Assembly (NCBI RefSeq): GCF_004010195.1 | Contig: NC_057713.1 | Coordinates: 110,193,490-110,257,489 of the forward strand | Direction of reading: 5' to 3' | From: Chiloscyllium plagiosum | Lineage: Eukaryota | Length of the DNA stretch: 64,000 nucleotides | In this document: positions 835-63,430 of the stretch, piece after piece | Position numbering within the stretch: position 1 is the stretch's first letter | How the letters are laid out: every line of letters starts with the position of its first letter | The notes under the pieces: model-generated | Database searches by the model: none | What the model saw: the letters and a program-made list of their open reading frames with translations, nothing else | What the model was told of the DNA's origin: nothing | Position numbers and translations under genes: made by a program

Positions 835-1020
835 CGCCACCCCCACCCTCCTCTAGCTTATCTCTCCATGCTTCAGGCTCTCTGCCTTTATTCCTGATGA
901 AGGGCTTTTGCCCGAAACGTTGATTTTGCCTGTCCTCGGATGCTGCCTGAATTGCTGTGCTCTTCCAGCACCACTGATCCAGAATCTGGTTTCCAGCATC
1001 TGCAGTCATTGTTTTTACCT
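835..1020 (+). mobile_element. Short Penelope-derived element with hammerhead-like core
   Basis: Contains CTGATGA-AGGGC-TTTT-GCCC-GAAACGTT followed by ...GATGCTGCCTGA...TTCCAGCA...CCAGCATCTGCAG. The same terminal sequence ends the GIY-YIG-bearing fragment at 9883-10603. Confidence 0.75.
894..921 (+). ncRNA. Minimal type I hammerhead ribozyme motif
   Basis: Core CTGATGA, an extra A, stem II GGGC/GCCC with a TTTT loop, GAAA, palindromic ACGT and then T. Stem I is weak in this copy. Confidence 0.6.
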
Positions 1021-3187
1021 TGGAGACAGAAGTATCCCAGCAGAGCCTACCTGGGTCAGACCTCCTTAGAAATACCCAATTATGTAGCCCCTCCCCCTGC
1101 GAGCTTCTGATTTTCTTTGATATCTCTCCATATCTCTCAAAAGTGGGACTGTTACTATGACACCCATTGTAGGAATATGCTGAAGCCATAGTCCTCAAAG
1201 TGGTACCTAACACCTTGCCACATCCAGCACAAGTCCATGCCGATTTCGCTAATTTTAAGCCTCCCCTCCAAACACCTATTACTTCCAACAATTAAAAAAA
1301 AAAGCCAATAAAAATAATAAATGACTAACCTGCAAGCTGGATGACCTTAAATGACTTTGGTTGGTGGGGTCCTTTTTGCTAGTCAATGCACAAGATCCAA
1401 AGTAGTACTGCTGGCATCAAGTCAACATTTACATACCAACAGATATCACCAACCAATAACTCTGTGTCCTCCTAAAGTACGCAAGTAATGCTTCCATAAA
1501 TGTTCTCACCAAAATGGCATATCACGTCGGTTGTGTCAGAATTAGCTGGAAGTCTGCTTCCTAGCCAATAGTCTAGCACTGTGCAAGATATTTTATTGTG
1601 AAAAAAATGAGCGTTAGTTTATTTACCAACTTCATAAATTCATGCCAGCCCATGATTTATCCTTTGTAAAGCTCTCACAATTTTGTGGAAATGATTTGGG
1701 ATTTTCTGGAATTATATTGAAATAACAACATTGTTACAGTTTGACCTAAATAATCTATTCTGATATTCATTCTGCAGAAGTGTAATTCTACTCGCACTTT
1801 CCCACCATGTACTCATATTTCTTTATTTCTTTTCTTTCAACCACCAATCTATTCTTCAATGTAACATGGTTTCCGCTTCAATCAATAGCTCTGGAACTGC
1901 TTTCTACAACTTCACATCTCACCATATATAAAAATATACTGCCTACTTTCTGTTCTTGCATTTTATTCATGTCCTCTATCTGACAAATTCCCGACTCTCT
2001 ACAGATTTTGGGGGATAATTATGTTCAATATGGAGTGGGCAAGAATAAATTATCTTGGAGACTGCCCCTTTCTGCCCCATTGAAATGTCTGGCTCATTTG
2101 TATTCATGCATAATAGGCAAAACCGTAATTGGATTGACATGTGCAAATGCTGTAATCCTATCATAGACAGAACCACCATTCTCACATGTCTGCCTCAGCA
2201 CCTTCCATATATCCATGGTGCCGGAATCAGTAGGATGTTGGAAGTAGATTAAATCAAAAAGACTGGGGTATTTGCTTCTGCAATACAAATGGCTGACAAT
2301 GACAATATTTTTCTTTGTTTGTTAGATCTTCCTACCAATATTGAAACTGAGCTACGCTGTACCACCGTTGTCTACTAATGCCATTGGATTTGTAATTGTA
2401 ATTGATTCCAGAAAATGGGATTGGTTCAGAGATACCTGGCAACAGCAGCTGCAAGTTTCATTCTGCTGGATTCAATGTCAGGTCTGGATACAGATAAATT
2501 AAACGGGAAAATCTTCATATGAAGAAACAACAAATGTTTATTTTACAAACACTGGCACTGTAGTGGATTTTACTATTCAGAATTACAGTAAAACAGCATT
2601 TGTTTAGGACATTCCATCCTCTGTGAATACAGAGGCACAGTCCTGAGACAACAGAAATTAACACAAACTAGGGATTGAAATATTGATGAAAGGCACATCT
2701 AACTTGATGCTCAGAAATTATACTAATGGCTAAATAATATCCCTCAAAGTAGACCCACAATGATTGAATAATATTCTTCACTTCAGTGCTAGATTCCATA
2801 TTAATAGTTGGCCATCATTTCTCAATCCAGTACATTGTCTGTTTTGCTAATGATGTAAGATAAACTATAGCATAAGTTATCTTATTATAGTAGCAAATGA
2901 TCAGTTGGAACTGAAGCCAGTCTATGATATTGACAGGCAAATACACCTTCAACATCTGACAGCAAATTATCCTTTTACAGCAAAAAAACGAAACTCAGAT
3001 ATAAACAGATCAAAACACGTCCAGTATTACTGATGATTCCTTTGATAAGCTGTCAACATTAGATAATACTTTAGTGGAAGCAGATCAAGTTTGCAAAGAA
3101 ATTACCAACATGTCAGTACAATTATATAGTTTCTCTTCTATTGGGAGAAGAACATTTAAGCTTATTGTGCACAAGTTTTTGCCTTAC

Positions 3188-3416
3188 CTTGCAGGTTTTG
3201 CAGTGGTAATGTCATAATGCCTCCAGCAGCAGCTGCTGCAACCAGACCCTGAATGTTGGTTAAATTGGCAGCTGGCAGCGTGAGGACGAGGCCCTGTTGG
3301 TTGCCAAGCTGACCAGCCATATTAAATGGTATGAGGATTGGCTGATTGAGGGCAGGATTGCTTGTTGGCATCACTCCTGCCACAGCTGAAGCTAGCTGTT
3401 GTGCTGTCAACAATGG
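3188..3416 (-). CDS. POU6F2: POU6F2 internal coding exon (229 nt)
   Basis: Translates to PLLTAQQLASAVAGVMPTSNPALNQPILIPFNMAGQLGNQQGLVLTLPAANLTNIQGLVAAAAAGGIMTLPLQNLQ, which I recognise as the vertebrate POU6F2 N-terminal region. Acceptor is ttcctttctgttctttacAG|CCA and donor is CAAG|GTAAGG. Phase 0 in, phase 1 out. Confidence 0.95.
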
Positions 3417-4492
3417 CTGTAAAGAACAGAAAGGAATAATTGAACAATCAGTATGAATGTTCCTTATGTTAAATAGTAGCTACAATTTGGGCACATTAGT
3501 GCTCACTGCCTATCAATATCATCTTATTAACTAGCTTCTAATATCACAATTATACAATTGATTTAATTTCTTCTCAAGTCAAGGCCAGTTGGTGCATAAT
3601 CCTCATGCATTTGCAACCTATCTAGATAAGTCCATGATCAAACAAGCAGGTGATAAGTAGCAAACTTTGCGATTTGTATTACATGCTGCAGTGTTACAAT
3701 TGCTAAGGTTATTATGGTTAACATTTTTAATTAAGTGTTCATTCTTTATTAATAAATTACAAATTAGGATTGTAATTGTCACAATTGTAAAACTCACAAT
3801 TTACTGAAAGTGATTAAGAAACTAATGTTGAGCAGTGTAGTTAATTATTCAGCTTATTACAGAATCAAGACAAGTGACTGCTGATTGTTCCCTTCACTGT
3901 CTTCACTCAATTATACCTCATCTGTTACATAATGCCAAATCTCACTGTACATTTGTTGGAATTGGACTTGCCATTTCTTAGCTTCTGTGAGGGCTCAATA
4001 ATGAGTGACCGCTAAAATGATCTGTTCAAACCGCGGGCAATGAACAGAATCTACCAGTTCTGCAAACCCCTCCAAATAACGGTAAGTAAGGCAGTCAGTG
4101 TAATTGCAGCAGATTATAACAAATTTTGATGTTAAAATGAACATTTGTGTTCATTTATAGGAATCTGAATGTGCACTTCTTGGAAGCTTGCAATAAGTTT
4201 TAAAGTCTTTTGCTATTTAATGGTCAGGGTTTAGTAACTAATAGGTTACAAATGCTGAGCCCATCCATTTTTTGGCATACTTATATTGACCTAAATAAAA
4301 CCACTTGTGTACTTCAGTGACAATTCAATGAGGAATGATATTGTCCAATACAAAATGTAGAAACAGCCTCACTTTGCTTCATGACATGACAACAAACATA
4401 TACCTGTACAAGGTAATTTCTGATGGGCACAGTGAATTGCATTGTATTTTGAGAGTTAACATTGGAATATGAGTGTATGGTGAATGTAATGA

Positions 4493-9345: not shown

Positions 9346-10755
9346 CATTTGAGCCTTGAATCTGGGTTGGCGTTCAGTAAGAGGGTGACTGATCTGTTTG
9401 TGTTTTAGATACCACATTCCCATCAATCCCACTCACCCTCAATTCCCCAGCCTAACAAGAAACCATCCACCTCAATTAAGTAAACATCTCCTGAACCACC
9501 TCCAATGTATTTCCATCCTTCCTTAAATAACTGCACACAATATAGGAGATATGGTCTCACCAAAGCTCTGTGTGACTGAATCATAACAGTCTTACTTTTA
9601 GTTTCAATTTCTCACATAATGAAGGTAGCATCTCATGCACCTTTTTGACTGTATGCTGTACCTGCATACTAACTTTATGTGACTCATGCACCAGACACCG
9701 AAAACTCTCTGCACTTCAGAATTCTGCAGTCATTCTCTGTTTAAATGATACTCTGCTTTTTTATTCATCTTGCCAAAGGGAATACCTTCACATGTTCTCA
9801 CATTTTCCTCCATCTGCCAGATTTTTGCCCATTTATCCAACTTATCTATATTGTCTGCAACTTCCTTCACAAACATACTTCCACACCTGGCACCTTCCCT
9901 TGCTGCCACAAGTGGTGTAAAACCTGCACCCCCACCTCTCCCCTCACCTCTGCCCAAGGTCTCAAAGGACCCTCCCATCCTGCACATCCAAATACCTCAA
10001 CTGCAGTGTCCGTTGCTCTCGAACTGGTCTCCTCTACATCGGGGAGACAGGATACCAACTCAAGGAATCTTTCAGGGAATACCTCTGGGACACATGCACC
10101 AACCAACCTCATCGCCCTGTGACCAACCACTTCAACTGCCCCTCCCACTCCACCAAGGACATGCAAGTCCTGGGCCTCCTCCACTGCTGAATCCAAGCCA
10201 CCTGACGCCTGGAGGATGAACACCTCATCATCCACCTTGGGACCCTCAAACCACACAGCATCAATGTCAATTTCACCAGTTTCCTCGTCTCACCTCCCGC
10301 CAGATCAAACCCTCCAACTCAGCATCACCTTCTTGAACTGCCCCACCTGTCCATCTTCCTTTCCACATATCCACTCCACCCTCCACCATCACCCTCCCCA
10401 CATGCATTTACCTATCATCTTCCCCCAGCCCCACACCCACCCTCCTATTTGTCTCTCAGCCCCCTAGCCCCCAACATTCCTGATGAAGGGCTTATGCTCT
10501 AAACATTGATTCTCCTGCTCCTCAGATGCTGCCTGATCTGCTGTGCTTTCCAGGACCTCACTTTTCAAATCTGATCTCCAGCATCTGCAGTGCTCACTTT
10601 CTCCATACTTCCCAGTTATCTTGGTATACGTTATGAGTTTAGCTACCAACAATTTACTCCCTCCACCTAAGTCACTGGCGTAAATGTTTAAACATTGAGA
10701 CCCCAGCACAGATCGGTGTGGAACACCACTCATCACCATTCTGCCAAACAGCAAA
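9345..10755 (-). mobile_element. CR1-type LINE 3' portion, split by a Penelope-like insertion
   Basis: Minus-strand peptides SGVPHRSVLG and DIDKLDKWAKIWQM-like. The sequence resumes after the insertion at 9883-10603. Confidence 0.8.
9883..10603 (+). mobile_element. 5'-truncated Penelope-like retroelement (GIY-YIG endonuclease end plus terminal repeat)
   Basis: Peptides C..CKTC and CSVRCSRTGLLYIGETG (YIG motif). Degenerate hammerhead core at 10480-10507. A 9-bp direct repeat catacttcc lies at 9874-9882 and 10604-10612. Confidence 0.85.
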
Positions 10756-10764
10756 AGACCCATT

Positions 10765-11040: not shown

Positions 11041-11044
11041 GGTC

Positions 11045-13050: not shown

Positions 13051-16000
13051 TGTTGATTATAAATATCTTAAATCAATAACAGTTCAGATAGTGAGCTGAA
13101 TTACTGAGCCTTGCTCTAGTCAGGCTCAAAAATACCAATGTAAGCAAACATGCCATTTACAAACCGCATTCCTGACGTTGGCCATTTTTGCTGAGAATGT
13201 TTTGGTACTAACAGATCTACCTAATCTTATGGGGGAAGCGTGTCATGTTGAGACCATTTAAAGGAAGCTAACTGTGATTATTCAGTTGGATAATGCCAAC
13301 TCAGAGGATGAGGGGAACGGGTAATTGAACTGGCTTGGGGAGGGGGCATCCTTAAGGACCCTAGACAGGTCAACGATGTGATGTGGAGTGGGGTAGTGTT
13401 CCTGGCACAACTAAAGCCCTCTCTAAAATTGAAACAGAAAGGGCTGAATAAAACTCTGCAGTTCAGGCAGCATCTGTGGAGGGAAATGGAATTAATGGCC
13501 GAATCGTCTATTTTGAAGCTCGATGGGAATTGCGCATGAGAAAACTGTGGAATCCCTGACATAGCTGACTCCGAAGGAATTGCCAGGGAAACTGAAAATT
13601 CCACTAAGCACCCTTCTCCTGTGCAGTCTTCTTTTGGGCAATTTTCTCCTGCAGACATCTCTACTGTCGCTATGCTGATTCTATGGCAGCATATCATCGC
13701 TGATGTGGAAGATGTTGGACTTCCTGCTGTCATTTACTGTCAAATATACCCCAGGTACTTTCCATTCTCGTCCTTTCAGCTTGAAATACTCAAAAACATG
13801 GTATGCAAGCTGCAGCCATAATAGAATTCTGTCAAACATTTACCAGAGGGAAATGTCACAGCAGCTGGAATGTGTGAGCTTTTATTCAAATTGGATAATG
13901 ACAACTTCAAAAAATTCACCTGGAATGCTGTCCAAACTCACTTCTGTTTTCCTGGTCAGCTTTCAGAACCCTGGGAAACCTCTGCTGCTCAAGGAAAACT
14001 CAAAGAGAAGTTAAAAACAATCTGAAATAAGTAACTAAACCCAAGGTTCTTAGTTGCACTAATACAAAGCTGCCTGAATCTAACTAGGAAATACCTGAAT
14101 TTCGAGAATAGCTTTGGCACGAGCATTCAAATACACCTCAGGTGAATCCAAAAGTGGGTGTGCTGCAGCCAACTTGCATTTCAACTTTAAAAATTATTAA
14201 TTTCATCCCTTGTCTGCTTCCTATTTTCCAGCTCTCGAGGGTTAAAATTCCACTCAATAATGGCAGACATAGTATACCACATAGGAATATTGCAATTCAT
14301 GGGCTCATGTTTGGATTGTTTCATTGATATATGTTATGATTGACAAGAGCAACTGAAGTTTAAAGTTTGTGGAATATTATTTAAGAATGACATGTTAAGA
14401 GCTGATTGCATTCTGAAGTAAATTTACCGCTCAACACTTAATGAATTAAATCTATCCCTGACTAGTTTGCCTGTCCTGAGTTCACACAGGGATGGAATTA
14501 TGCCCTTCTCCATGTGACTTTGGTGGCAGATGACATTTAAATCAGGCAGACGGTTGGTGGGTGAGGACCTGAAGCTTCCCAAACCTGGCCTGATTAAACT
14601 GGTGGTGGAACAGGTCACGAAAGGCCTTCCTGTCACCCAGAATTGGGCAATGAACTAGCTACATGGGAAACGTGAAAAACAGAGTTTTTGCTTCTATCAC
14701 ACAGTGTTTAATTGAGGATCAAGCATTGGATTTGTGCACCATCATTCTTCCCTTGCTGCCAACGCACACCGAGCAACCCATTCTTACAATCACTCATCTA
14801 TGCCCAGGCCCATCAGCAACTCAGCAGTCACCACCTTGCCTGGAAACCTCTTCCCTGGATTCTTGTTGTTGCCAGCTGTGGCAAGCCTTCGCAGAAACAG
14901 ACAACAATGGACTTTCTCTAGGTATCCTACAGAAGGGTCACCTCTAATATTTACCACTAAATCGTTTCAAGATTCTGAAGAAAAAGCAGTTCCCAAGTTG
15001 CTGCAACTTTTGCTGCTGTCTTTTTTTTTGACTGAGCTGCATTTTTTGCTAAGTGTTATATTGCCAATTTGCAATCCATTTTATGGACTGGAACATGTAA
15101 CACTTGCACAAAATTGGAAGTTACTTGAGTAAGCAGATAGCTTCCCTCACAGTCACAAGACGACTCAGTTTTTGGTAACAGAAATTGACTTGTTAACGAT
15201 AGCTAAAATGTAAAATGTAAAAAAAAGCTCCAAGTTCTGCAGCTGTAGCTGCAGCTAGAACTAAAATATTCTGAGTAGTATGAATCAACAGAAGGGGCAT
15301 CAAGAGAATTGTCATCGATGCCCTTCCAGTGATTGTGTCAACTGAGTGTTCAATTTACCGGCTGAGAAACCTCTACAATTGAGTTTTGTAATGCACTTGA
15401 GAATTCAGCATGAGGTATTCAATGTTACTCCCCTCTCACTCAGTGATAAGCTGAAAATGTGAGCTTTGGCTGAAATCTTTTTGAAATCTGAATATCCTAC
15501 AAACAGGGAAATCTGCTCAATAAAGAATCATTTTGAAATTGTGAGAGACAATAAAACAAAAGCCATCGATGTTACGAGTTGAGTTATTTCGAACCGAATA
15601 CCATTTTGATATATAACTCTCAACACTACGACGACTAAATTCTCCTCTTGCGGTGTATTGTATTGAGCAACATGCTCAGCTGTAGGCTTTACACCTCCCC
15701 GACAAACAGGGCAGCAAAACAGCAGCAGAATTTGTAATGAACTACATTCCCTCACCATTTAAAAAAAGTCCTACATAAAAGTGTAAGATGGTATACTTTG
15801 CATGAATTGAATAAATTTCATCATTAAATAAGACCAGCAATATCTGAAATTTTACCAGGTTTGCTTACATATGTGTTTTGGTTGTAAAACCAAATATGAA
15901 TATATCCAGGATAATTTACATGTAAAAACACTGTTCTTCCTAAATATTTTTGTTAAACAATTATTTATGTTATCATTTGACAAGAAACAACATAGAGAAT

Positions 16001-18452: not shown

Positions 18453-19187
18453 TGTAGCTCAGCCTTTTTAAGGCTTTTCTGTGAGTTATTTCTCTTATAC
18501 CTCAGTTAACATGCTCCCAGTACAGGTTCCCTTATGTCCTAGATAGCCTTATCTTTAATTTGACCAACTTTTAGATTCACAAATTCAGAGAATTGTGTTA
18601 TGTGTTAATGCAGTTATGTATTAAACAATGGACTCTTTCACCCTGAGCCCTATACAGAACACAGAACATTCATGAGTTCTATTCACATGGGGGTCAAAGT
18701 GTGCTTTCAAGGCTTTCATAATTTCTGTAGTCTGTTATTTACTCGTCTTCAAAGAGATTTCAGATAGAATACATGCTGTAACAGTCTCTTGTCAGCAATG
18801 GTGAAGTTGTTCAATGCCAAGAATACCATTTTGAGTTCTATCTTGCAGTTAATGTTCCCTCTTTGCTACACAGAGTTCTATCCTTTTAGCAGCAGAATGG
18901 AATTGCTCATCTTCCCTTGCAATCAAGCCAACCAGTGGTATTCCAAGAGATTCTCACACATTTGAAGGTTAGTTTCTTGTTGATTTATTCTGTCTGTTGC
19001 TGTGGTCTGATAAATGTTACTTGCTTTCCATTGTTGTTTGTAGTTGAAAATGTCTGTAGGTACAGGTGACACAGGGGCTGAAGGCTTTTATAGCATGTAG
19101 TTTTTTTCCACACATGGATGCTTTATTTTAAGTAGGAGAAAGTGATGCTGGAGATCAGAGCTTAAAAATGTGCTGCTGGAAAAGCCT

Positions 19188-19913: not shown

Positions 19914-22191
19914 GGTGGTAAACACCTTCTCCATGGCTTTAAGACAAGCAGGCATAAAATGTATTTTCTGTTTAGCTTCTGCTGTCTCTAATTGTGTGTC
20001 ATCTCATCCTGCAGGGATCAGGTAAGTGTACCATTGAGTGCTGTGCAATCTGGATGTTGTGACTGTCATGGTTGAGTAGTTGGCAGCTTTTGCAAGTTTG
20101 GAATGTAAGTATGAGATCCACGACATTTTTAAATGTGTGACAGAGAAGTGGGCTTTTGGAAAGGAAGTATGAGCCCTGATTAATATAAGTTAGTTGCAGG
20201 TAAATGATAAAGGTTCAATACATGCAGCAGGGTATGAGGCATGAAGTGCAGCTGAAGATGCATGGTTTTGAAACTGATCGTGAATACGTATGCAAGACAT
20301 TCAACTTCTTGTGGCATTCTGCATTCAAGCCTTTGGGGAAACTTGACTCTTGGCATTGAACTCCATGGCAGTTTGCTCTCCTTGCATGAGTCTGGAGAAT
20401 TTCTTACCTCCTTCAACACAGGACACATTTCCTCCTTTCCACCTTGTCCACCAAGGGTCCCAATGCACCATAGGAAAACCTTGGAGCCATGTTCTCTTAT
20501 GTAATGTCATTCTTCAATGGTTGACACACTAGGTTAACTTCCCATGCTACTATCAGCACAGTCTCCAGTTACAATGCACCTCCCTTTTAAGAGGTGCACA
20601 TCAGCTTTCAGTGTTGCTGGCCACTCTGGCTCAGTCATCCAGCCAAAAAAAAAAACACTATGTTTAATGTTAGCTGGATGCTAAAAAGCTTAAAATGAGC
20701 AGGCAGCAGCAATTTTATGTGCTTCCAGCATTACAACCAATGGGCATGAGTTACTCATGCATATCTGTGTTGGGGAGTAGGGTAGCACCATACACTTATT
20801 TTGGGGCTATCAAATTTAACTACTGTCTTTCTTTGTAGACAGAAGGGAGATTATTGAAAGATTCATCAACATTCCTGTTGATCAGTTTCTCCCAAACCCT
20901 ACTGTAATATTAATATGCCAGACATTTTATTTAAATTCTTGTCAGACACATTAACATAATAGTGCTAATCTACCACAACAAAGGATATTGATTTTCTGCA
21001 CTGCGGGGAGCAAAAGTGCACTCAAGATCTGTGCACAGAGCAGGGCTTAATGAAAGTAGACAGACTAATTGAACAAACATTCATGATGCATTTGAGAGCA
21101 TTATGCTTTTTGCAACTGTATTGCTGACATATATCAACACACTGTGGTGACCCCTTTTGATTAAGCCTACCACTAAAATACAGTAATAACGCAGGTAATT
21201 AAAGCTGCTCAATTATTATCTACTAAGACTACACAGGTTTGGATGTCACATATAACTCCGCGTGACCTATGTCTCAATAATGAGCTCTTGAAGCCCAGCT
21301 AATGGAAAGCTGTTGTTGTTTGCTCATTGTTTGTCTGTTTAGTTGCTTGAGTTTTGTGATATTATTCTATTTACAGCTTATGGGTGGAAAATTAGGTGCA
21401 AGGAGGAGGATTAGTAGTGTTCTCACTGTTGATAACTTACAGAAAGATCTTTACTGAATCTGAATATTAGGATTATTAGTATCACCAATTCCAGATAGCT
21501 TAAAATTAACGGGAACTTGGATTTCCGATTTCATAACCCTTGTTTGAATGTAGCTGAAGGATTCTTCCAGCCATCTATTGACAAATTACAGAAGTAGAAT
21601 AACAATGAGGTTCATGGCCTCTGCATATTATTTTAAGTGTTAGCTCATATCCATGGAACAGACTGGATGCCCATCTACCCTCCCATTTCCATTCATGCCA
21701 CAAGTGAACAATTTCCTCTGCCTGACCCAAACCTGCCTGCCTGTTTCTTGTGGTTCAAAAAAACTTTGGTGGGGGGAGCAGCACATTGATGAGAAAAGCA
21801 TATGGCCACAGCTCAATCATTGAGAATGCTGGTGACATCAAGGACAAGAAGCCAGACACTGCAGCGCACCTGGCTACAATTGGATAGGCTATGTTGGAAC
21901 CACATTAAAAAAAACACTGACAAGTTTAGCTGGTAACCATCTTTGAAACTCACAGTAATATCCTGCAATTCCTTAAAATATCTAGAACACTTAGCTCAAT
22001 GTTTCTTACTCATGCAGTGAGAACAAATTATTGACCAATTCGGGATAATGTTCTCTGAATCATGCAGTCATTTAACAGAATTGGAAGAGAAAAAAGACAT
22101 TTCTTAAACAAAGATTGATGTGTAGTTGTATATATGGAGAAACAAATGAGCCAGGCAAACTCTACTGCCTGTAAAATTGCTATCTACGCAC

Positions 22192-22283
22192 CTGTGCCCC
22201 GACTGAAAAGGAAGGGTGTGTTTGGCTAGGCTGGTGCTGGTCGGTTGTGACAGGTTCGATGGGTGTCGAGCTTCCTCTGGTGC
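22192..22283 (-). CDS. POU6F2: POU6F2 internal coding exon (92 nt), upstream of the 229-nt exon
   Basis: Translates to (G)TRGSSTPIEPVTTDQHQPSQTHPSFSVGAQ, resembling mammalian GARGNPALSDPGTPDQHQASQTHPPFPVGPQ, which directly precedes PLLTAQQ. Acceptor is ttctgtttgggttttAG|GC and donor is CAG|GTGCGT. Ends in phase 0, matching the next exon. Confidence 0.9.
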
Positions 22284-22866
22284 CTAAAACCCAAACAGAA
22301 GAACAAATAAATATCCACCACCATTTTCCCTTTAAGATGTCACACAAAACCCACTTTATTTCTGCTAAAACCATTGAATTCATGATGGTCTGAAATTATT
22401 GCTTGTTTGCACAATAAATCCATTCAACTTGATTAACATCTAATCAAAGTATCACTATCACATAATGCTTACAAGAAGCAACTGATTAAAACATATGCAC
22501 TGATCTAACGTATCAAAAAATAGAAGTTGAAGCACTGGATGGGTGTAAGCCACTCGAGAGATGGCAGCATGTGAAGCATTGAAAAAATAGATTTTTTAAA
22601 TATTACAAAAGTACAAAACAATACAATTCAAAACAATACAAAGAAAGAACACAAATTTTAACAAACCCAACCCGCCCTCATGTACAAATGTATAAACATT
22701 AATTGAAAAATACATAATAAAAAACCCAACTAGCTATTTAACTAAATAAATAATAACCATTAACAAACTAATAGATAGTAATAACTCAACTCAGCCAAAC
22801 AAGACACTCATACGTTCGCAGTTCCTCCTCTCTGGATATTGGACTCGTAAAACACAATCATTACGG

Positions 22867-25800: not shown

Positions 25801-26001
25801 TGGTATTAAAAATGAAAAGTAAATCTGATCAAAGCCATTCTGCTGTAGTTTCAAATGCTCCCTATCATCCAAGTGTGTCTCCTGTAACAAAGCAATATCC
25901 ACCTTCTTGTCTCGAAGACTCAGAAGTACCTTCTTCCTCTTAATTGGTGAGTGACTCCCCTTGATATTCCAAGTACACCATTTAATCAAGTCATTAGCCA
26001 T
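22867..26001 (-). pseudogene. L1 ORF2p (APE endonuclease, reverse transcriptase, C-terminal Cys-rich region), disrupted
   Basis: TWNIKG, LLQETH, IGGDFN, RIDFF, SDH, PGPDG, SLDAEKAFDRVEW, LYADHV (YADD equivalent), SGYKIN and TCPKYKVCTGTLTHCLWSC across several frames; shorter than typical, so probably internally deleted. Confidence 0.92.
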
Positions 26002-29669: not shown

Positions 29670-30230
29670 GAGTGTGGCAGGATTTAGCAGAGTCAACATG
29701 GATTTATGAAGGGGAAATTATATTGAAGAATAGGAACAGGAAGGTCTGGAGAAACGAAGCAGGCCTAACAGCATCTATGGAGAGAGAAACAAAGTCAATG
29801 TTTTGAATCAAACATGTTCCTTCTTCAGAAATAACGATATATTTTGACTTTTTGAGGAAATAACTCACAGAATTGATATGAGAGAACTGTTGGATATAAA
29901 ATATTTAGATTTTCAGAAAAAGTTTGGTAAGTTTCCACACAAGTGGTCAGTAAACAAGTTTCCACACAAGATGTCAGCGTAAGTGGATATATGATATAGG
30001 AGCAGAAAAGGAGGCTGGGCAGTGTTGAACTTGACAGAGACTTAGGTATCCTTGCTCATGAATCACTGAAAGTTGACTTGCAGGTCCAGTAAGCAATTAA
30101 GAAGGCAAATAGCATTTTAGCCTTTGTTACAAGAGGACGTAAGTACAGGATAAAGATGTCTGACTGCAATTATACATACAGCCTTGGTGAGATCACACCT
30201 GGAGTATGGAGTGCAGCTTTGATCTCTTTA
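29670..30230 (+). mobile_element. Old CR1 RT fragments, with a hammerhead-family element (minus, about 29740-29830) inserted
   Basis: QHGFMKG and YLDFQK-like sequence. Confidence 0.6.
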
Positions 30231-35064: not shown

Positions 35065-35185
35065 AAACCAAATACTGTTGATGCTGGAAATCTGAAATGA
35101 ACACAGAGAATGCTGGGGAAACACAGCTGGTCTGGCAGCATCTATGGAGAGAGAGTTACCAAATCCGATATGACTCTTCTTCACA
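35065..35185 (-). mobile_element. Degenerate Penelope-derived short element
   Basis: gatgctggaaatctgaaa...tctggcagcatctatggagagag...tcttcttca, homologous to the arms at 52328-52541. Confidence 0.65.
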
Positions 35186-42897: not shown

Positions 42898-42992
42898 TCA
42901 AGATTAGAGTGGTGCTGGAAAAGCACAGCAGGTCAGGCAGCATCCGAGAAGCAGGAAATCGATGTTTTGGGCAAAAGCCCTTCATCAGGAAA
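42898..42992 (-). mobile_element. Short Penelope-derived hammerhead-family element nested in the CR1
   Basis: Reverse complement reads cctgatgaagggcttttgcccaaaacatcg...; flanked by tgtag at 42893-42897 and 42993-42997. Confidence 0.8.
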
Positions 42993-47597: not shown

Positions 47598-50594
47598 TAC
47601 TGTCAGTAGTTGAATTAGTCAGCAGTTCAGTCAGTTCTGATGAAAGGGTGTTGGGCTGAGACATTAACTCTTTCTCCCTTAACATATGTTACCTGATCTG
47701 CTGAGTATTTCCCACATTTTCTGTTTTTGCTTTGGATCAGATGTGTTTATTCTATAAGCATAATAAATATCAGTATAAAAATAACTGAAGTCAGGTCAAA
47801 TCAGAAAATATGTGGCGCAAGATAACTTGTTACTTTTTTTAAGGTTTATGATCCCAATGACATTTCTCAAACAAGTCAGGAAAGCTATCACTCTCAAGTA
47901 ATGTGTTGAATGATTGTATAAATGTGTTATTGATTTTGACCCCGCTATCCCAGCTTTCCAATGGTCTAAGTGACTGTGTTGGTTGCATTGACACTAATTC
48001 AACAAACCCGATCAAGCCATTGACTTAAAGAAGGTTCAGTAATGATAACTAATTGTTCAAATTTTTCAGTGGGGACTCTCAAGGAGTGCAGAATCCCAAA
48101 CAAATTATGATCTGACATATTTACTGTTATAATTTCCTAGAATTTCCACATCATAATGATTTATGCTATAGATGAGTCATGTTGACAGTGCAAACTTTCA
48201 GCAAAGCCAGGCTCTTTGTAATAATCTTTAAGTCTGTTCTTACTTTCAACCACTTCCACCTTTACTTACCACACCATAATGATTAATAATCTTGGATATA
48301 ATAACCATATTTATTGAGCTTTTTACATTGGAGATGGTTGTATTGTCTTTCTTTTATCAACAAAATCACACACAATCACAGTTTTAGGGTTTCTTTAAAT
48401 CCTCACTTTAGGGATGTTCCAGATTATCCTTCTCAGTGTGCTAGTCTCATTATTCTCCACATACATACAAAAATGTTTTTCCAGATGAGTTCAGTGTGCC
48501 CAAGAAGCAAATAGAGAATGTTTCTCAGTTCACCTCAGTTACAGATCCTGTCACATTTTGTCTTTGCAAGGTGGCAGAATAGCCCTACCTTAGAGTTTAA
48601 CTGCCAAATAATTTTATTATACAATAAAAGGAGAAGTGAATAGTCATAGTTACACATTATGCATTTATAGCTGTATATAGCTCAGCTAGGTTTTTGTGTA
48701 GGAAAACAAATAGCAAATTGCTTGAGATTTCTGTGGTAATAATCTTATGAAGAAGTTTTGTTTTCTTTTACTTCTGTTTACAAATATTTTGTGGCTTTAT
48801 TTCATTTTAGAAGTTTCAGTCAGATCCTGATTTGAAGAAAAACAGGTTAATTAGTGTCTTGAATTAATATCAGACATGAGAAGATTTAAATAAGCGACAT
48901 TCTTTTAAAAATGATGCAAATCAAATTTGAACAAATCCCATAAATTGTTTATTTTTGCACTCATCAAATCGGCCCTATTTTTGGATAGCAGTATCAGAGA
49001 GTGACAGGTTTTATAACATATATATTAAGAAATGATTTCAGTGCTTAAAATTCATTTTTAATCCTTTAGGTCAGTATTGCCCAAACTTCTACTAACTGTG
49101 ATCCCATTGTCATGACTCTTCAGCGAGAGACAGTGTGTGGTGAATACGACGTGAGAGCAAGTATCTATTGGCGAGGGAACATAGCTGTTATAAGTTGGTT
49201 AGAACTTTATGCCAACCACTGTTGTCTCAAAATTCAGGTCCCCAAGCATCAGCTTGCAACTCCACTTGAGGAAGCCCAGCCTTATGTCATTTGACAAAAT
49301 TAATGATGCCAAAATAACACTGGCTGAATTTTTCTAATATGGAACTTACATTATTACTGTGCTTATGGACTCTAAGTAAGTCCGGACATACCTACATTTA
49401 AGATTTGAGAGATTTTTAGACTTCCAATTGCCTACTTTACTTTCCTGGATTGCTCCACAATTTCTACGACAGTGAATTCAGATGGCTAGATCCACAGAGG
49501 TTTAGGTTTTAGCCCTGTACTCACTGTGGTTTTTACATGGATCGATTTAGAAAGTTTCATGATAGGCATAAAGCCTGTTGAGTGGCATAACTTTAAGCTG
49601 GAGTGTCAAAGCACAAAGTAAACACATTGTTTCAATTGTGCCACAGCATGTTTCCAAATATACTCTTACAAATCAAATAACCATCTTATCCATTTACTGA
49701 AAAATTAACTTCAACTATATTTTCTCAAATCACCAGTATTACTTTAATATTGCACAAAAAAAACAATTTCATTTTTATAATTGTACTTACTAATTATTTG
49801 AAAACTAATGATTGCTTCATGGAATTGCTCATGGTAAGTCATTATCTGTTTATGACAGGTAGATTATATCCAGCAACACACAGGCTAAAGAATGGTCTTC
49901 AGTTGCAGAATGAAAGCAGTTCATTGTAAAATGGGGTACCCATTCACATCACATCCATTTTCTGTTTTTATTAACTCCAGCTATAAAAAAATACTGCCAA
50001 TATAATGATGAGTTTATTTTGTGCACCCAGCAGAGACCAATTTTATTTCTATAATAAAATTATATTTGTGGTCAAGAACTTGCAATTAATCTATTGTGGC
50101 AAATTGTTCTAATTTATTCAAAATTTTACTTTTGATTAAAGCATGATTTCAATACAGTTAGATCCTTGCCTGGTCCCAGTAGTATTAAGAGGGTTTGCAT
50201 GCTAATGAATCAATGTTTAACATGGCTATACTTACCCAATCTGGGCATGGAAGTTATTACATACGGGTAATAACCTTTGGTTGTAGGGAAACAATGAATT
50301 TATGAGTACACATTTGGGATTAGTTGACAAGAGGCTCTGCCCATGTGGGGAGCATCTGTTGTGGCACAATAGCAGTGTCCCTGCCTCTGAGCCAGAGGAG
50401 CCAGGTTTCAGTCCCACTTGTTCCAGAGGTGTGTCATAACATTTCTGAAAAGGTTGATTAGAAAATCTATCCAGGTGGGCAGCTAACAGGTTTAATTAGT
50501 AACTCTTCTGGCTAAAACCTACTTGATGGGGAGAGAGGTCAAATTCCTGTACACACAGGCAAATAAGAAACTTTGTTTCTGGTCAGTTCTTACA

Positions 50595-51351: not shown

Positions 51352-51697
51352 GGGGCAGCACGGTGGTTCAGTGGTTAGCAGTGCTGCCTCACAGTACAAA
51401 GGACCCAGGTTTGATTCTATACTCAGCATCATTCTGTGTGGAATTTGCACATTCTGCCCGTATCTGCCTGGGTTTCTTCCAAGTGCTCCGATTTCCTCCC
51501 ATGGTCCGAAGATGTGCAGGTTAGGTAGATTAGCCATGTTAAATTGCCCATAGTGTCCAGCGATGTGCAGGCTAGCTGGGTTAGCCATGGGAAATGCGGG
51601 CTTAGAGGGGTAGGGTAGGGGAGTGGATCTGGATGGGATGCTACTCAGAGGATCAGTGAGGACGCGGTGGGGCTTTCACATTGTCGGGATTCTATGA
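51352..51697 (+). mobile_element. HE1-type SINE
   Basis: Head ggggcagcacggtggttcagtggttagcagtgctgcctcacag. Confidence 0.9.
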
Positions 51698-52327
51698 GGA
51701 AAGACTTGGATGCCAACCCAAGAGAATAACTAGCTAGTGCTACATGTTTGCAATATTACACTGGAAGATATCCAGTCATGTTGCTCTAGTATGTAGGCTT
51801 GGGATGGAGTAGTCAGATCAGCAGTAAAGCACTTGAAGAGGAGGTTAATGAGGGAGGAGATGCAACATGACCACATATCAGTTGTCTAAACAGGACAAAG
51901 TAAATGGAGAGGCAAAGCCTGAGAACTGTAGAAACAGTTTGTGGGCTTAAGCAAAGAAAACTGGGCTCTTGGAACTGATTGGTTATATTTTCACAGCACT
52001 TTGATGCTAATAACTGGTAATTTTCATCTCTGGCTATTATTAATGGTGATTTGTTCCCATTATCTGTTCAGTTAAAATTCAGTTATTTAATAAATATGAC
52101 ATCAGAGATAATCAAATGTATACAATGTATACTTGCAATGCCTACAGATGTGTTTCCTGATGTATTTTAGCAAATTCTGTAATTGTTTGTCTAAATATCT
52201 AAATGTTATATTTCCTGATTTTCTTCTTCATGTATTTGCCACCCAATATTTATCTCACTGTATGTATTTCATTCTTCTTTGTAAAAATCCTAGAGAACTG
52301 CAGATGGTGGAAATCAGAAACAAAAAC

Positions 52328-52541
52328 AGAAGTTGCTGGAAAATCTCAGCAGGTCTGGCAGCACCTGTGGAGAGAAATCAGAGTTAAAGTTTCAGGTCCA
52401 GTGACCCTTCTTCAGAACGGAGCTCAGAAGATCAGTTCTAAAGAAATCCAGTTCTGATGAAGGGTCACTGGGTCTGAAACATTGACTCTGCTTTCTCTCC
52501 ACTGATGCTGCCAGACTTGCTGATTATTTCCAGCAATTTCT
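52328..52541. repeat. Inverted pair (about 91-bp arms, 32-bp spacer) of hammerhead-family elements
   Basis: 52328-52418 is the imperfect reverse complement of 52451-52541. Each arm has CTGANGA-AGGGTC-ACTG-G(A/G)(C/T)CT-GAAAC. Confidence 0.9.
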
Positions 52542-53437
52542 CAACAATTTTACCAGAGCACATTATCACATAATTTCTCTCACTGTTTGTAATGGGAACT
52601 TGCTGATGCAGAATTCCTGCACATTTTCTTCCTTTATAATTATATTTTTCAAAAACACTTCACTTCTAGGAAAGTACTATGATATATTGAGAAGCTTGCT
52701 CAAAGAGTAACATAAGTGAGCAGTTTATTTCCTTTCTTAGTTCTCTAGCAAATCACTTCTGGCTGCTAATTCATCCCTATGATGAGTTCCTGCTTACCAA
52801 AAGTTCTCCACTGAAATGTCTCTAGCAATGGAATGACTTCAAAATGTTTATTATTCTCTTTGGGGCATCTGCTGTGCAGCCAACGTTCTATTGGAGTCAC
52901 TGCCATAAATCTATTATTTTCTCAAAAATCACTTACAGGTACTCATTATTCATTACACAAATGGCGAATTCAGTGAATGAGAGATTCAGCTAGAAAGTTG
53001 GTCATCACCTTGCAGGAACAAACAATTCCTCTGTAGGAACCATATTAAATCAATTAAACAAGAGATCTAAAGCAAAAATAGTTTTGCTGCCAAATTTCTC
53101 TGCATTAATTTTTTTGTGAACTCAGTCAAAATTGCCATAAGTTGACATTTTATGCAACCACATTTGCAATCACAGACAAACATGGCACGGATAGCTGCTA
53201 TAACATATGTGCTTTTAAATCAAAATGTATGAACTGGAAGGTGTAAATAGTGGATAGATAGCAGGATTGAAAAAATCTAAAAGCTGCCTTAAGCTTAATC
53301 AAAACTCACCCAACTCAGAGGTCAGGAGCAATTCAAGTAACAACAATGTCACTTTTTGGTGAGTTAATTATGTTGCTGCCTTTTACTGTAATATATTTCC
53401 ATTTTAACATAATGGGGACTGGGGTGGACAGAGTTAT

Positions 53438-53575
53438 AAGTCACACTACTCCAGGTTATAGTCCAACAGGTTTGACTTTTCAAACAAGTCAACTTCACCT
53501 GACGAAGGAGCAGCACTCTGAAAGCTTATGATTTCAAATAAACCTGTTGGACTATAACCTAGTGTTGTCTGACTT
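53438..53575 (+). mobile_element. Second Penelope-type terminal-repeat family with inverted ends and a hammerhead core
   Basis: Inverted arms at 53438-53473 and 53540-53575 (aggttatagtccaacaggttt / aaacctgttggactataacct). Core CTGACGA-AGGAG-CAGCA-CTCT-GAAAGCTT at 53499-53527. Confidence 0.75.
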
Positions 53576-54911
53576 CTCATTTTGAATTAATACACAACTG
53601 ATATGAAAGAAATCTGAGTGACTGTGGCAAAGTGAATGTGTACTGTATCCCAGAATTGAACTCCAAATTAAATAGAAATTCTCATCAAATATTTTCACTG
53701 AAATCACTTTTGTCACCTTGTGCATTCGAATACACAGGAACATTGTCCATGACTTTCAGTCATTGAAAAGCAATTGGTGATACAACTTTGAACCTGCTGA
53801 TAGACGTATGGAAACCCAGGATGGAAATTCATCAAAATTCAGGACGTATTTAGAAAACATGTCCTGCACAGTGCAAGACAACAGAAACACTACGCAAGAT
53901 TCACTCAAGACTTTACTGATAAAGGACAACTGTGTATAGAGCAAGTAATAGGACTATTAATGTGACTGTCAATAAGTGAAACACATTCCTCAGGAAATAC
54001 ACGTGAACAATGAAAGACAGAAAGAGATCTACATCCATCCATCTGATCCCGTAAAACTGCAATGCGATACAAAGTTCTCTCTGCCATGCAATCTCCTAGG
54101 AGATACCAAATACAAACCCAAACCATTGTAGGGAAAACAAATGTTGGAAATTTCTTTTATCATACATCCAACTCTTCACCCAAAATACACACAAACTCTC
54201 ACACATTTGCAGTACATACCAAATGTTGAGTAAGAAGAGGAAGGAGACCAACAGAGATTAAGGAAGCATTTCAGTGCATGTCAGTGACTAAGACAAACAG
54301 GGAGTTGGGAAGAAGCATTCATGTGAAATACCTAGGAAGATATTAGTGCCAAGCACAACTTTCAATCTTCATTATTCCATCAACAGGTAAACTGTGTATT
54401 CTAATCTTACAGATTTTACTCTGAACTGTTGTTCTCTAAAATGATGACCAAGATCTAATTATCAATTCAATCTATCCAGATTTCATCCTCTTGCACTGAA
54501 CACATTTTGTCACTTTACTCTTGCACTTTATTCCTCGCACTATCTTTTCCAAAGTTAAACAGTTCAATACATCACATGGGTGACATATTCATGGTTGGAC
54601 AAAGGGATAGATATGAAACCGGGAGAAAAATATCCTCCCTACTTTTTTCATCATTCCATGACTTGTTCTTTGTTCATCTCACAGAATTTAGAGTCTGTTT
54701 AATGCATATAAGTAGATTTCATATATTTTTTGTAATGGTTCACAAACAGGTAATGATAATTGGTTGATTTTAAAGTTCAACATAAAAAATGGAAATAATA
54801 TTTAATTAATAAATAAAGGGTACAACTGAGTATGGGAGAATGGCTGTGAGTATTGCAATGAGAGATTAACCTTGCATGTTGGTAGCCAAGGAGAAAATAT
54901 GTATTGTACAT

Positions 54912-55243
54912 TTAGATTTAGATTAGATTTAGATTTAGATTAGATTACAGTGTGGAATCAGGCCCTTCTGCCCAACAAGTCCACACCAATCCGCCGAAGC
55001 GAAACCCACCCATACCCCTACATTTACCCCTTACCTAACACTACGGGCAATTTAGGATGGCCAATTCACCTGATCCTGCACATCTTTGGACTGTGGGAGG
55101 AAACTGGAGCACCCGGAGGAAACCCACGCAGACACGGGGAGAACGTGCAAACTCCACGCAGTCAGTCGCCTGAGGCGGGAATTGAACCCGGGTCTCTGGC
55201 GCTGTGAGGCAGCAGTGCTAACCACTGTGCCACCGTGCTGCCC
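54912..55243 (-). mobile_element. Young HE1 SINE with a long (aatct/aaatct)n tail
   Basis: Reverse-complement near match to 17863-18155. Confidence 0.95.
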
Positions 55244-55459
55244 ACATATTCTTATAAAAGTCAAGCCTACATTTTCAGGGATCAAAGCCCTGTAATGTCA
55301 GAAGCAAAGTGCAATCTCCACAGTTTCATTAACAAGCTCAACCTTTGGGAGAAGCCAATAGCATAGTGGTAATTGTATGGGAATTTTTATTCAGGAAGGA
55401 GAGATTACATCTCGAGTGAGACATTGCCCAAGTGAGTCTATAGTTCAGGGGATTTGGAG

Positions 55460-57575: not shown

Positions 57576-59049
57576 CATCACTAGACTAGTTACCCAGAAG
57601 CCCAGAAAAATGTTCTGTGATTAATTAATCAAATCTGGAATTAAAAGCTCGTCTAATAGTGACCACAAAATTGCTGTCATAAGTTAGTTCACCAATGATT
57701 TGTAGGGAATAAAATCTGTCACTCTTACCTGGTCACGCCTATATGGGACTCCAGGCTCGAGCCTAAATGTGGTATCAAGCAACTACAAGATTTAAGAAAG
57801 GAATGAAAGCAGATGGACCACGTGGCATTGACTTTCCCCTGGAAATTAACAGAAAGGTCAGGCAGTTCTAGAGAAACCAGTAGGCAATACAGGAGATCCC
57901 AAAGTCCTGTTCACTAGTCAGATTTCTGTTTTAATACTGATGAGCCCATTGAGTCCTCAGAGAATGCAGTCAGCACAAAGTTTGTGGCACATGGGTAATT
58001 CAGCGGCAAAGCAAGTGACAATGAAGAGGGGAAGAATTTGCCCAGTGCCGCTGGGCAAATTCTTGAAATTTCCTTCCTGGTTGTGCATCTAGCTACAGCA
58101 ATATAGTCTGCAGCACTTCAAGAAGGTAGCTCACTTTCTCCACTACCTTCTCAAGGGCAACTTTGGATGGACAACTGCAACAGCAGTTCTAAAGAAGGGT
58201 CATATCAGACTTGAAATATTAGTTACGGTTCTCTTTCCACAGACCTGTTGAGTATCCAGCATTTTCTGTGATTGTTTCAAATTTCCAGCATCTGCAAAAT
58301 TTTGCTTTTATTTAATGAGCAACAAATGCTTAGCTGCTAATGACACCCACATCTTACGAAAGAATAAAAGAAAGTAAGATGGGATTTTGACTCTCCAGGG
58401 AGCAGATTAAGGACAGTGCAATTCAGAGCACTTTAAAAAAGTTTCTGACTTTGTGTCTGAATGAAATTGATCAATACAAAATGTTGAATTAACTTTTAAC
58501 AGCATTCTGTCAATCATCGTAACATTTCATTATATGATTAAGGAATAAATGTGCAAGCATCTCATGTAGAATTTATGATTTTTCACTTTACTTGAAGCTA
58601 CTGGTGACTTTCATTGCTTTGGGAACATTTACGTGCATTTTAATGTAGTTATGATGAAATGAAGTAAACTGATGAAAAATAACTTTGCTGACACAACATA
58701 AAATACCTTCCTTATTTTTCTCCCTTAATAAGTGCTCTAACCAACTCATGGTCAATTTACTCGGGCTGAAATTTCAGGTGACAGCAGGGAACTGTTCTTA
58801 AATAATGACATTCTCAGATAGCCATTGGCCTGCCCACACATCACAGTGTCAGGAACATAAATAGCCTGCCTATACTTCTCTTTCTTTAAGATTGCAGGTC
58901 ATTTTTTTTTTAAATGAGTGTGGGGAATTGCCTGTTTGCTCATTGCTATTTAGCTCAATTTGAAGCCCACCTTCTGTAATGTTCCCTGAAATCTGATGTC
59001 CAGTTTATAAAATATTCAAAGGTTTGATGAGGGTACAGAAGTGTTACAA

Positions 59050-59490: not shown

Positions 59491-60619
59491 GATAACATGA
59501 TTTTAAAAAGGCCTGACAAAAACCTGATACTGAAAAGATGAATCTACCTGATCTCTTTACAGATGCTGAAAGACCTGCGGAGTTGTTCAATACTTTCAGT
59601 GTTGCATTCAGATTTACAGTAATTTGTAGTTGCTCCTTTTTTTAACATGAACAATTTAGGATACATACAGTGCAGTGCTGAATCTCCATGGGGAATTCTC
59701 TTGATCGTCTGCTGTTATCAAGGTGCAAATGACAAGCTCGACTGACAGATAATGGGATCAAATGACACAGAATCAGTGAAAAAAACTGCCCAACATTACA
59801 AAGCAGATACGTTAGGTTTCCACTGGTGGAATAATTAAGGTTTGCCTCATCTGTGGCTATTTTGTGATTCTTCACTAGTGCAGCTTTAGAACTTCAAAAA
59901 TGACAAAACCTGCCCTCATTTTTGTTGTAGAAGACGATAAGGGTGATGCTTTAATCTCATAAGTTGGATTTTACATACCTCCACCAATGATTTTGAAGGT
60001 GGGGATGGGGAGGGTTGACGTGGAGAATGTAAAATACAGCAGATGGCTTGCTCATCCATCCCTGATCTGTCTCAGGTTTTAAGGGTAAAGGAAAGATGCT
60101 GAGCAGCCTGCTTGGCTCCCATTAGGTCTATTTTACCCGTGGAATGGGGTCGCCTATGCCAGGGTGCAAATCCAGCAGCTTGAGCTTCATGGGCTAATGC
60201 ATAGGGAAGCCCTTCTAAAGGTGCTCCCTGGGCTCACCAGAGGCAATACTTCCCCCAAAAGCATCCTGGCCTTTTAAACCTGGGTTCCCTCAATCCTATC
60301 ATCGCAATCGATGCAGCTCTAGCACTCCCTCAATGTTCTGCCAATGTAAGGCAAAAGTGATGAATGCTGTTCCCAGTGTTAAATTGCTGTAAGGAAGTCA
60401 GCAGGACCTTGGACAGGCTCCACACTGACCTTTTATTATGGCTGGTTTCTGAGAAATCCTGGCATGCTGATATCCCATAGTGAAAATTTGAGCTCATGTC
60501 ATACACAGCTTTCCCACCATATGTAATCTGGATTTCCGATACACTGCCTGTGGCTGTGGTTCTCTGCTGTAAACATGAAATTGGTCCCATCCAATGTAAC
60601 AGAAACCATCTAGACACTG

Positions 60620-61959: not shown

Positions 61960-62472
61960 ATCTCTGGTGACTTAACCAGTGCGTTTATCCCTCAGTTAAT
62001 ATAATAATAAAAATCTGGTAATTTTCACATTGCTGTTAGTGGGAGTGTGCTGTGTGCAAAATTAACCATGTTTCTTGTATTGCAGCAATTCAGAAAAACT
62101 TCACCGATTCTAAAGCACCTTGAGATATGATTAGGTTAAATTGATTAGATTCCCTACAGTGTGGCAACAGGCCCTTCAGCCCAACCAGTCCACACCAACC
62201 CTCTGAAGAGTAACCCACCCAGACCCATTTCCCTCTGACTAATGTACCTAACACAATGGGCAATTTAGCAATTCACCTGACCTGCACATTTTTGGACTGT
62301 GGGAGGAAACCGGAGCACCCTGAGGAAACCCTTGCAGACACAGGGAGAACGTGCAAACTTCACACATACAGTCACCCGAGGCTGGAATCAAACCTGGGAT
62401 CCTGGTGTTGTGAGCCACCATGCCGCCCATATCCAGTGGTTATGAAAAGTGCTATATAAATGTAAGTCTTTG
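61960..62472 (+). mobile_element. DeuSINE-like (SacSINE1/AmnSINE1-type) 3' region split by an HE1 SINE
   Basis: cacattgctgttagtgggagtgtgctgtgtgcaaa ... gtgctatataaatgtaagtcttt; related pieces lie at about 44790-45035 and 52570-52730. Confidence 0.55.
62129..62428 (-). mobile_element. HE1-type SINE
   Basis: Reverse-complement HE1 sequence with short atat repeats on both sides. Confidence 0.9.
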
Positions 62473-63291
62473 GCTTTTATTCTTTATCTCCTGCTGTGTA
62501 CCTGTTTCCTGTGAGCTGTCAAATCATGCATGTGTGGGGGCTCTTAGTCACCACACACGCAAGATTAGGATGTTGCAGGAAAGCCCAAACCAACTGCTTT
62601 AATTGGTTTGTTGCAGGGGTCTGTTTGAATGCTATTCGCATCCCAATGTCACCTTTGGTAAAAGTGTGTAGAGGTAGGAACTGATCAATCAAATTTTCAT
62701 CATTTTTTTCTGCAACCCCTCCATCCACCTCAAACCTCCAAATCCAACCACAAGGGCATTGGAAAGTTTCAGGCCTATCTATCTCAAATTAGTGTTTCAA
62801 TTACTGCCTTTGGTTCACAACTAAATACCAAATTCTATTTCTGTGCTTTTATAACATCTCCACCATTTTACAATTCATTACTGAGTTTGGCTAGTTCAGG
62901 TTTCAAATTACAAAACTCTATTTTTCTATATAGTTTAGTTGGACAATGTTGTAATTTCAGTTCAAAATTAATCTATTGCTTTAATGATTCAGCATTAACA
63001 AATATGTTGCATTTAACAAATCTTAATCAATTTAACTATTGATCATGGAGGAATACATAAATTTTAAAGTTATATAATTACATGACTGGTATTGCTAACT
63101 TATGAAGGCGTCATGCATAATTAAAGAAGCACAAACATATGACATATGTACATAAGTTTCTATACGTTAGACAACTAAGCAACAATATTGATTGGGATAG
63201 ACAGACCTTTGGGTAGATATCGGTCAATAAGTATGATTTAGATAAATAAGCATGTGGAAAGTTGGACAAATAGACAGGTAGGTGAATATAT

Positions 63292-63430
63292 GCCCAGTCC
63301 TGATGAAGGGTCCTGCCCGAAATGTTAACTCCCCTGCTCCTCAGATGCTGCCTGACATGCTGTGCTTTTTCCAGTGCTACACTTTATCCACTCTGACTCT
63401 CTAGCATCTGCAGTCTCCACTATCTCCTCA
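63292..63430 (+). mobile_element. 139-bp hammerhead-family element with a 14-bp target-site duplication
   Basis: gtaggtgaatatat at 63278-63291 and 63431-63444; core CTGATGA-AGGG-TCCTG-CCC-GAAATGTT. Confidence 0.88.

Follow-up and report, generated by a model that had tools for sequence, protein, structure and literature searches.

Repeated matches to the core of a minimal hammerhead ribozyme in a 64,000-nucleotide (nt) stretch of the genome of the shark Chiloscyllium plagiosum (contig NC_057713.1, positions 110,193,490 to 110,257,489 of the forward strand; the whole stretch is hereafter called the window) raise the question of what carries them: a short non-autonomous element of its own kind within the introns of POU6F2, as a preliminary description of this DNA had supposed, or something already known. 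Our searches leave us highly confident that the motifs are minimal hammerheads that mark the 5' edge of the pseudo-long terminal repeat (pLTR) of at least two, likely three, families of Penelope-like elements (PLEs), here called A1, B and A2, and that the window copies are 5'-truncated, likely dead insertions.

Minimal hammerheads and Penelope-like elements

Each of the eight places named in the preliminary description carries the motif family, but both core boxes, CTGANGA and GAAA, are kept in only five of them, GAAA being gone from the copies at 10480, 42988 and 47637. Only the copy at 894 passed a descriptor with stem II of at least 4, palindromic 15.2/16.2 and stem I of at least 2, and none of the eight passed when stem I was set to at least 3; descriptor matches numbered 49, against 0 on the reversed control sequence. 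A profile built from seven of the named copies recovered the decayed copies suspected near 29800, 35170 and 58230 (the first two on the minus strand) as members of the motif family, together with several others, and a search with family models placed 16 pLTR arms in the window.

The tie to PLEs proposed for these minimal type I motifs was borne out, as the pLTR follows open reading frames (ORFs) for reverse transcriptase (RT) and GIY-YIG endonuclease (EN) in families A1 and B. Immediately upstream of the 10480 copy, translation revealed an EN remnant consisting of a broken Cys linker and a GIY-YIG domain, which matched the protein of another locus, L067, by tblastn (61–71% identity, E 1e-30); Pfam gave no match to the window EN fragment alone. 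First-look candidates across the genome numbered 71,836 for EN and 72,871 for RT, and in 23 of the 30 best loci, among them that of the window, the A1 pLTR lies 97–337 nt downstream of EN on the same strand. In L261 and L067, a single A1 ORF that encodes RT and, at its C-terminal end, GIY-YIG precedes the pLTR; in L261 the long RT-linker-GIY-YIG frame matched RVT_1 (E 2.8e-6) and GIY-YIG (E 6.5e-4), both below the curated Pfam cut-offs, and a PDB search with its protein returned no match. The copy at 53499 is a member of family B, a second PLE whose copies share a long 3' untranslated region (UTR) after another GIY-YIG: the B pLTR lies downstream of EN-B in 20 of 24 loci, and one locus (L285) encodes a YIDD-type RT, a linker and GIY-YIG. 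A CX2-5CxxC linker between RT and EN is present in the A1 and B proteins; it is given as a mark of the Neptune or Nematis clade in the accessible text of PMC8557442, so that, by this criterion, A1 and B would fall in one or other of these two clades. Family A2, comprising the copies at 52415, 52454 and 47637 and the decayed ones, is A1-like downstream of the ribozyme and is older (median 82% identity to consensus vs 88% and 87% in the other two families).

Some observations sit less easily with this assignment. The tie between A2 and an ORF is weak, a same-strand EN-like match lying upstream in 3 of 30 loci. No complete pLTR-ORF-pLTR copy, with an upstream pLTR leading into the ORF, was seen among the long copies, most of which hold N gaps; ten long "open frames" likewise turned out to be mostly N gaps.

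The great abundance suggested for these elements also held. In a sample of 120 stretches of 10 kb at fixed round coordinates (1,149,525 non-N bases), from which all sampled counts below derive, we found 369 arms, or 32 per 100 kb, against 0 in the reversed sequence, which extrapolates to roughly a million arms over 3.56 Gb. Exact intact motifs across the genome numbered 59,108 for A1, 5,405 for B and 51 for A2 (reversed control 0 for each), and 17 of 199 sampled arms outside the window were strictly intact. The window, called "dense" at first sight, has 25 arms per 100 kb vs ~32 genome-wide (2.5 per 10 kb vs a mean of 3.1 and a median of 2 over the 120 stretches), which is the genome average, and the location in POU6F2 is incidental.

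Architecture, covariation and decay of the motifs

The core CUGANGA...GAAA-NN-UH without a helix III loop is found in the family consensuses and in 212 core-retaining copies. The one-base core insertion that the motifs were said to share is present, but it is not special, being a general feature of PLE minimal hammerheads in the accessible text of PMC4209133. Located between 9 and 10.1, this insertion is A in A1, A2 and B and U in a fourth family, C; G10.1-C11.1 is kept in all four. Our descriptor required both features, and unconstrained base counts agree. The palindromic pair 15.2/16.2 is CG in A1, A2 and C and GC in B, the CG form decaying to TG or CA. Family C itself lies outside the window and has a longer stem II (L241, L262, L263, L109, L127, L144 and L157); at a further locus, L098, a decayed C copy follows a different endonuclease-like end, which we take to be of Poseidon type.

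Covariation among subfamilies stood between families and not within them. Across A1, A2, B and C, respectively, stem pairs change in step at 10.4/11.4 (C-G, U-A, G-C, A-U), 2.1/1.1 (C-G, U-A, C-G, A-U) and 2.2/1.2 (U-A, U-A, A-U, C-G), a comparison of four masters that is not a phylogenetic test and in which stem II of A2 and B was fixed by the search patterns. A cross-family MAFFT alignment moved GAAA by one column, and pairs were therefore counted by descriptor. At 2.3/1.3, a U.U mismatch marks the dominant A1 subfamilies (71 of 94); an A1 subfamily with a fully paired 4-bp stem I (L101:9031-9068 and L140) occurs beside this commoner form. Within families, copies decay at CpGs, and the stems GACCT and CTCT, described earlier as subfamily variants, arose from GACCC and CTCC by CpG decay. 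Hammerhead CpG sites are changed in 20% of cases in A1, 37% in B and 40% in A2, with the catalytic G12 among them in all three families.

Insertion shape, rival explanations and a possible mechanism

The sampled arms form 89 head-to-head pairs, which are ORF-less and take in 178 of the 369 arms, against 6 tail-to-tail and 8 head-to-tail neighbours. Arm 3' ends are bimodal, near +85 and +125 from C3; 73 of the 89 pairs consist of one tailed and one tail-less arm, and in 85 both arms are of one family. A target-site duplication (TSD) with at least 11 matches flanks 45 of the 89 pairs, vs 0 of 600 shuffled flank pairs. The A1 arms of one pair resemble each other more closely (89.5%) than arms of different pairs do (83.1%), and 18 of 21 A1 junctions differ, the remaining 3 having the same length and near-identical sequence, which short microhomology could explain; this within-pair similarity and the mostly unique junctions suggest that each palindrome most likely formed anew at insertion. 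In the window, the elements at 52.3 kb and 53.4 kb are head-to-head pairs, and a solo tailed arm (63295-63428) has a 17-nt duplication. Pairs that join two families might have proved the use of two RNA templates, but we rejected this argument, as there were only 4 among the 89, one of them clearly nested. Head-to-head neighbours with arms from two different families were noted at L079, L180, L117 and L155; such neighbours are rare and partly nested.

It is quite improbable, in our judgement, that the arms are a separate non-autonomous family, resembling a short interspersed nuclear element (SINE), a miniature inverted-repeat transposable element (MITE) or a retrozyme, which copies itself as a unit with PLE proteins. 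Such a unit would fit the finding that at least 50 nt of upstream element is kept in only 51 of 369 arms, the TSDs that the palindromes carry and the three near-identical A1 junctions of equal length. The locus L272 (G000:C1:17711314 and 17711669), where a direct repeat of 355 nt places two intact B hammerheads on the same strand, is a candidate retrozyme-like dimer and would fit as well, as would the PLE-derived tandem retrozymes of one chondrichthyan reported in the available part of a 2026 preprint (bioRxiv 10.64898/2026.07.22.740005). However, the sequence of the stubs is identical to the 3' end of ORF-bearing elements, so that what had been put forward as a SINE- or retrozyme-like family consists of the 5'-truncated ends of autonomous PLEs with RT and GIY-YIG, and most junctions differ. 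Head-to-tail tandem hammerhead units, by which retrozymes are defined, are absent among the 16 window arms and rare in the sample (the 8 neighbours above), a same-strand, same-family neighbour within 1 kb being found for 13 of 199 core-spanning arms. Neither a tRNA-like head nor an A-tail is visible in the family consensuses, and in place of the Pol III head and fixed 5' end of a SINE, PLE 3' UTR or unrelated flank lies upstream and the 5' ends vary; ARAGORN found nothing in the window, a weak test that misses degenerate SINE heads too.

Domestication of some copies as active intronic ribozymes regulating POU6F2 is scarcely credible. The location in POU6F2 introns was confirmed: the window exons lie on the minus strand, with more exons on either side of the window, the translation of the exon at 3189-3416 is identical to POU6F2 of several sharks, and all motif copies of the window are intronic. 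Moreover, the named copies at 42988 and 52415 are sense to POU6F2, and strictly intact arms occur elsewhere in the genome (the 17 of 199 above). Against this, the window has no more than the average density, the only intact copy (894) is antisense, stem I is not predicted to fold in any monomer, and both sense copies are damaged, 42988 by G12>A and 52415 by a non-palindromic 15.2/16.2. The A2 pair that includes 52415 is predicted to form one long hairpin (-139.9 kcal/mol, z -13.3) in which the sense hammerhead is locked in pairing with its own complement in the inverted partner arm. With its sense copies damaged and the 52.4-kb copy predicted to pair with its mirror arm, cutting of POU6F2 pre-mRNA by the genomic copies is unlikely.

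The notion that chance alone produced these matches to a short descriptor deserves hardly any credence: the Rfam comparison that the preliminary description had called for returned no hammerhead family at E<=1 in the window, and monomer folds were no better than those of shuffles, but in four families the stem pairs change in step around a retained core, extra base, G10.1-C11.1 and palindromic pair, reversed controls gave 0, and the position in the pLTR is that of published PLE hammerheads, as far as the sources available to us describe it. Chance origin is thereby refuted for the sequence family, whose catalytic activity is a prediction only.

For the truncated PLE ends to which we attribute the motifs, the fossil record permits a tentative and, to us, rather doubtful reading of how they were inserted. 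By analogy with published elements, a dimer of the element protein would make an 11–20 bp staggered cut through both target strands and prime reverse transcription from two internal positions that lie ~85 and ~125 nt downstream of the core, which would yield the two arm lengths. Both cDNAs, copied from the uncleaved RNA of one element, would extend to a point shortly upstream of the hammerhead, where a transcript begun inside the pLTR likely has its 5' end, run off ~4 nt before the hammerhead and be joined there head to head. The ribozyme was likely under selection only in master elements, as the covariation between families suggests, and dimeric or protein-assisted cleavage of the master ribozymes is a step that we adopt from the literature. 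If this reading is true, the transcript would carry the ribozyme at its very 5' end, and the ribozyme would have no part in defining what is copied. The two arm lengths and the staggered duplication of the shark pairs fit the in vitro scheme for an anole element. The arm 5' ends bear on the template: 166 of 369 fall at -12..+6 from C3 (8.7 per nt), vs 22 in the interval +25..+34, which surrounds the cut site (2.2 per nt), with an A1 modal 5' break at -4 (22 of 96). We rejected cleavage-defined 5' ends, there being no pile-up at the cut site, and as the ends pile up upstream of the ribozyme the template was likely uncleaved. The sequence around the A1 mode fits what we take to be the initiator consensus. 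We ourselves infer the run-off at the transcript start; Drosophila Penelope has a promoter inside its pLTR, according to the accessible text of PMC2377424. A single-cell polyA run of a related organism gave 2,846 reads on an A1 copy, from both strands and with no pile-up, and a second run gave 0, but this library type is blind to cleavage and starts and is not evidence.

Several points weigh against this mechanism. Four of the 22 A1 ends at -4 represent an upstream subfamily variant and are not breaks, there is no cap signal before the modal break (no excess of G, 6 of 22), family B has no initiator-like sequence at its 5'-end pile-up, and BLAST ends are accurate to a few bases only. The within-pair gain in similarity is small in A2 (81.8 vs 77.7%) and B (85.3 vs 84.3%), and fold-back self-priming, for which we draw on the accessible text of PMC3846280, accounts for the pairs roughly as well as twin priming does. 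Non-CpG core positions of A1 change by 2.9% vs 5.2–6.9% at downstream non-CpG positions; this may come from ascertainment and base composition, and weak selection may still play a part.

Features of the window and comparison with known systems

The PLE-derived features and host exons of the window are collected in Table 1. Other repeats nearby include a decayed long interspersed nuclear element (LINE) at 22900-27500 on the minus strand with ORF1-, endonuclease- and RT-like frames, presumably L1/Tx1-like; LINE RT fragments at 19389-20003 (-), 30516-30896 (-), 40854-42600 and 43217-43643, which we assume to be CR1/L2-like; a dispersed ~350-nt repeat with a tRNA-like head (7884-8219, 17863-18142, 51353-51698, 54946-55251 and 62124-62420), which we take as probably a true shark SINE; and a tandem repeat with a 31-nt unit at 28791-28976. 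Two tmRNA Rfam matches in the window scored below gathering and are regarded as chance, one of them to alpha_tmRNA at 2310-2456 (25.9 bits, gathering 50), ~700 nt from a POU6F2 exon.

Table 1. Penelope-like element remains and POU6F2 exons in the window
Feature	Position	Strand	Remarks
A1 PLE 3' stub: ~57 nt 3' UTR, hammerhead, pLTR, tail	837..1020	+	3' end past 1007 read from sequence
Minimal hammerhead of A1 stub	894-921	+	sole descriptor-intact window copy; predicted cut after 921
Broken PLE ORF end: CxxxCxxC-type linker and GIY-YIG endonuclease remnant	9880..10290	+	frameshift and stops; translation, tblastn
3' UTR, pLTR and tail, same A1 insertion as the 9880 ORF remnant	10190..10604	+	hammerhead 10480-10507 without GAAA
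A2 pLTR fragment	13432..13486	-	begins downstream of hammerhead
Short A1 pLTR fragment	19144..19185	-	without hammerhead
A2 solo pLTR	29735..29830	-	decayed
A2 solo pLTR	35074..35183	-	decayed
A2 pLTR fragment	38042..38105	+	decayed
A1 solo pLTR, tail-less	42906..42991	-	G12 -> A; sense to POU6F2
A2 solo pLTR	47631..47732	+	decayed; GAAA lost
A2 head-to-head pair	52294..52541		tailed arm 52294-52421 (-), tail-less arm 52449-52541 (+); no clear TSD
Family B head-to-head stub	53410..53584		inverted arm 53416-53473, direct arm 53496-53584
Family B hammerhead	53499-53527		in direct arm of the 53410..53584 stub; stem I broken by G1.1>A
A2 solo pLTR	58183..58296	+	decayed
A2 pLTR fragment	59552..59619	+	decayed
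A1-like solo pLTR, tailed	63295..63428	+	begins 5 nt before core; 17-nt TSD (15/17 match)
POU6F2 coding exon (host gene)	3165..3425	-	bounds from alignment; exon itself slightly shorter
POU6F2 coding exon (host gene)	22189..22290	-	

The motifs are real, but they are the mostly decayed ends of ordinary PLEs found across the shark genome, and it is unlikely that they represent a new ribozyme element or anything special to POU6F2. The pairing of ribozyme and PLE, the extra base, the palindromic stem III and the opposite-strand pairs were already published in 2014, as the accessible text of that work shows, and as a ribozyme discovery the motifs carry little weight. Their remaining value lies in scale, one genome holding ~65,000 exact intact motifs and roughly a million arms, and in insertions of so regular a shape that published models of how PLEs integrate, and of what the hammerhead does, can be put to a statistical test. 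The residual interest lies in the 5' ends, which cluster just upstream of the ribozyme and not at the cut site.

The closest published counterparts are the hammerheads of Cervera and de la Pena 2014 (PMC4209133), whose accessible text describes the extra base 9/10.1, palindromic 15.2/16.2, consensus families with compensatory changes, and single motifs from truncated PLEs together with opposite-strand pairs. The shark motifs share with these the type I form without a helix III loop, the palindromic 15.2/16.2, the extra base and G10.1-C11.1, as well as the occurrence of several consensus families per genome, mostly as single motifs of truncated PLEs, and of opposite-strand pairs. They differ in their short stem II (4–5 bp) and in the U.U in stem I of the dominant A1 subfamilies. 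Sharks are not named in the accessible text, which reports ~9,000 motifs for Xenopus and ~4,000 for coelacanth, whereas we count 59,108 + 5,405 + 51 exact intact motifs here, a higher figure obtained by different search methods. Our literature search found no shark PLE hammerheads, with Dfam and Repbase outside its scope, and shark families may be listed in the supplementary material of PMC4209133 and the 2026 preprint.

As regards insertion, the shark copies resemble Adineta Pen2a (PMC3846280) and the scheme for EN+ PLEs (PMC8557442), as given in the available portions of these papers, in their inverted head-to-head pLTRs, 30–40 nt tail on one arm and TSD, and EN+ PLEs generally in strong 5' truncation and in carrying a GIY-YIG at the C terminus with a CX2-5CxxC linker. 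They differ from these in that the shark most often yields a two-arm stub with no ORF (the 178 of 369 arms above). For the Anolis Poseidon element PAc, the accessible text of Frangieh et al. 2024 (PMC11167929) reports that in vitro both target strands are cut and extended, that reverse transcription begins at two internal sites bracketing the tail, and that hammerhead cleavage occurs only with help from protein and is dispensable for insertion, with no RNA ends at the cut site. Unlike the shark families, PAc belongs to the Poseidon clade and was studied in vitro, and that text is silent on any pile-up of 5' ends just upstream of the ribozyme. Finally, the non-LTR retrozymes of the 2026 preprint (bioRxiv 10.64898/2026.07.22.740005) are, in its available part, like the shark copies in being non-coding, derived from PLE pLTRs and equipped with type I hammerheads; however, they are defined by head-to-tail tandem units, whereas the shark copies are solo or head-to-head.

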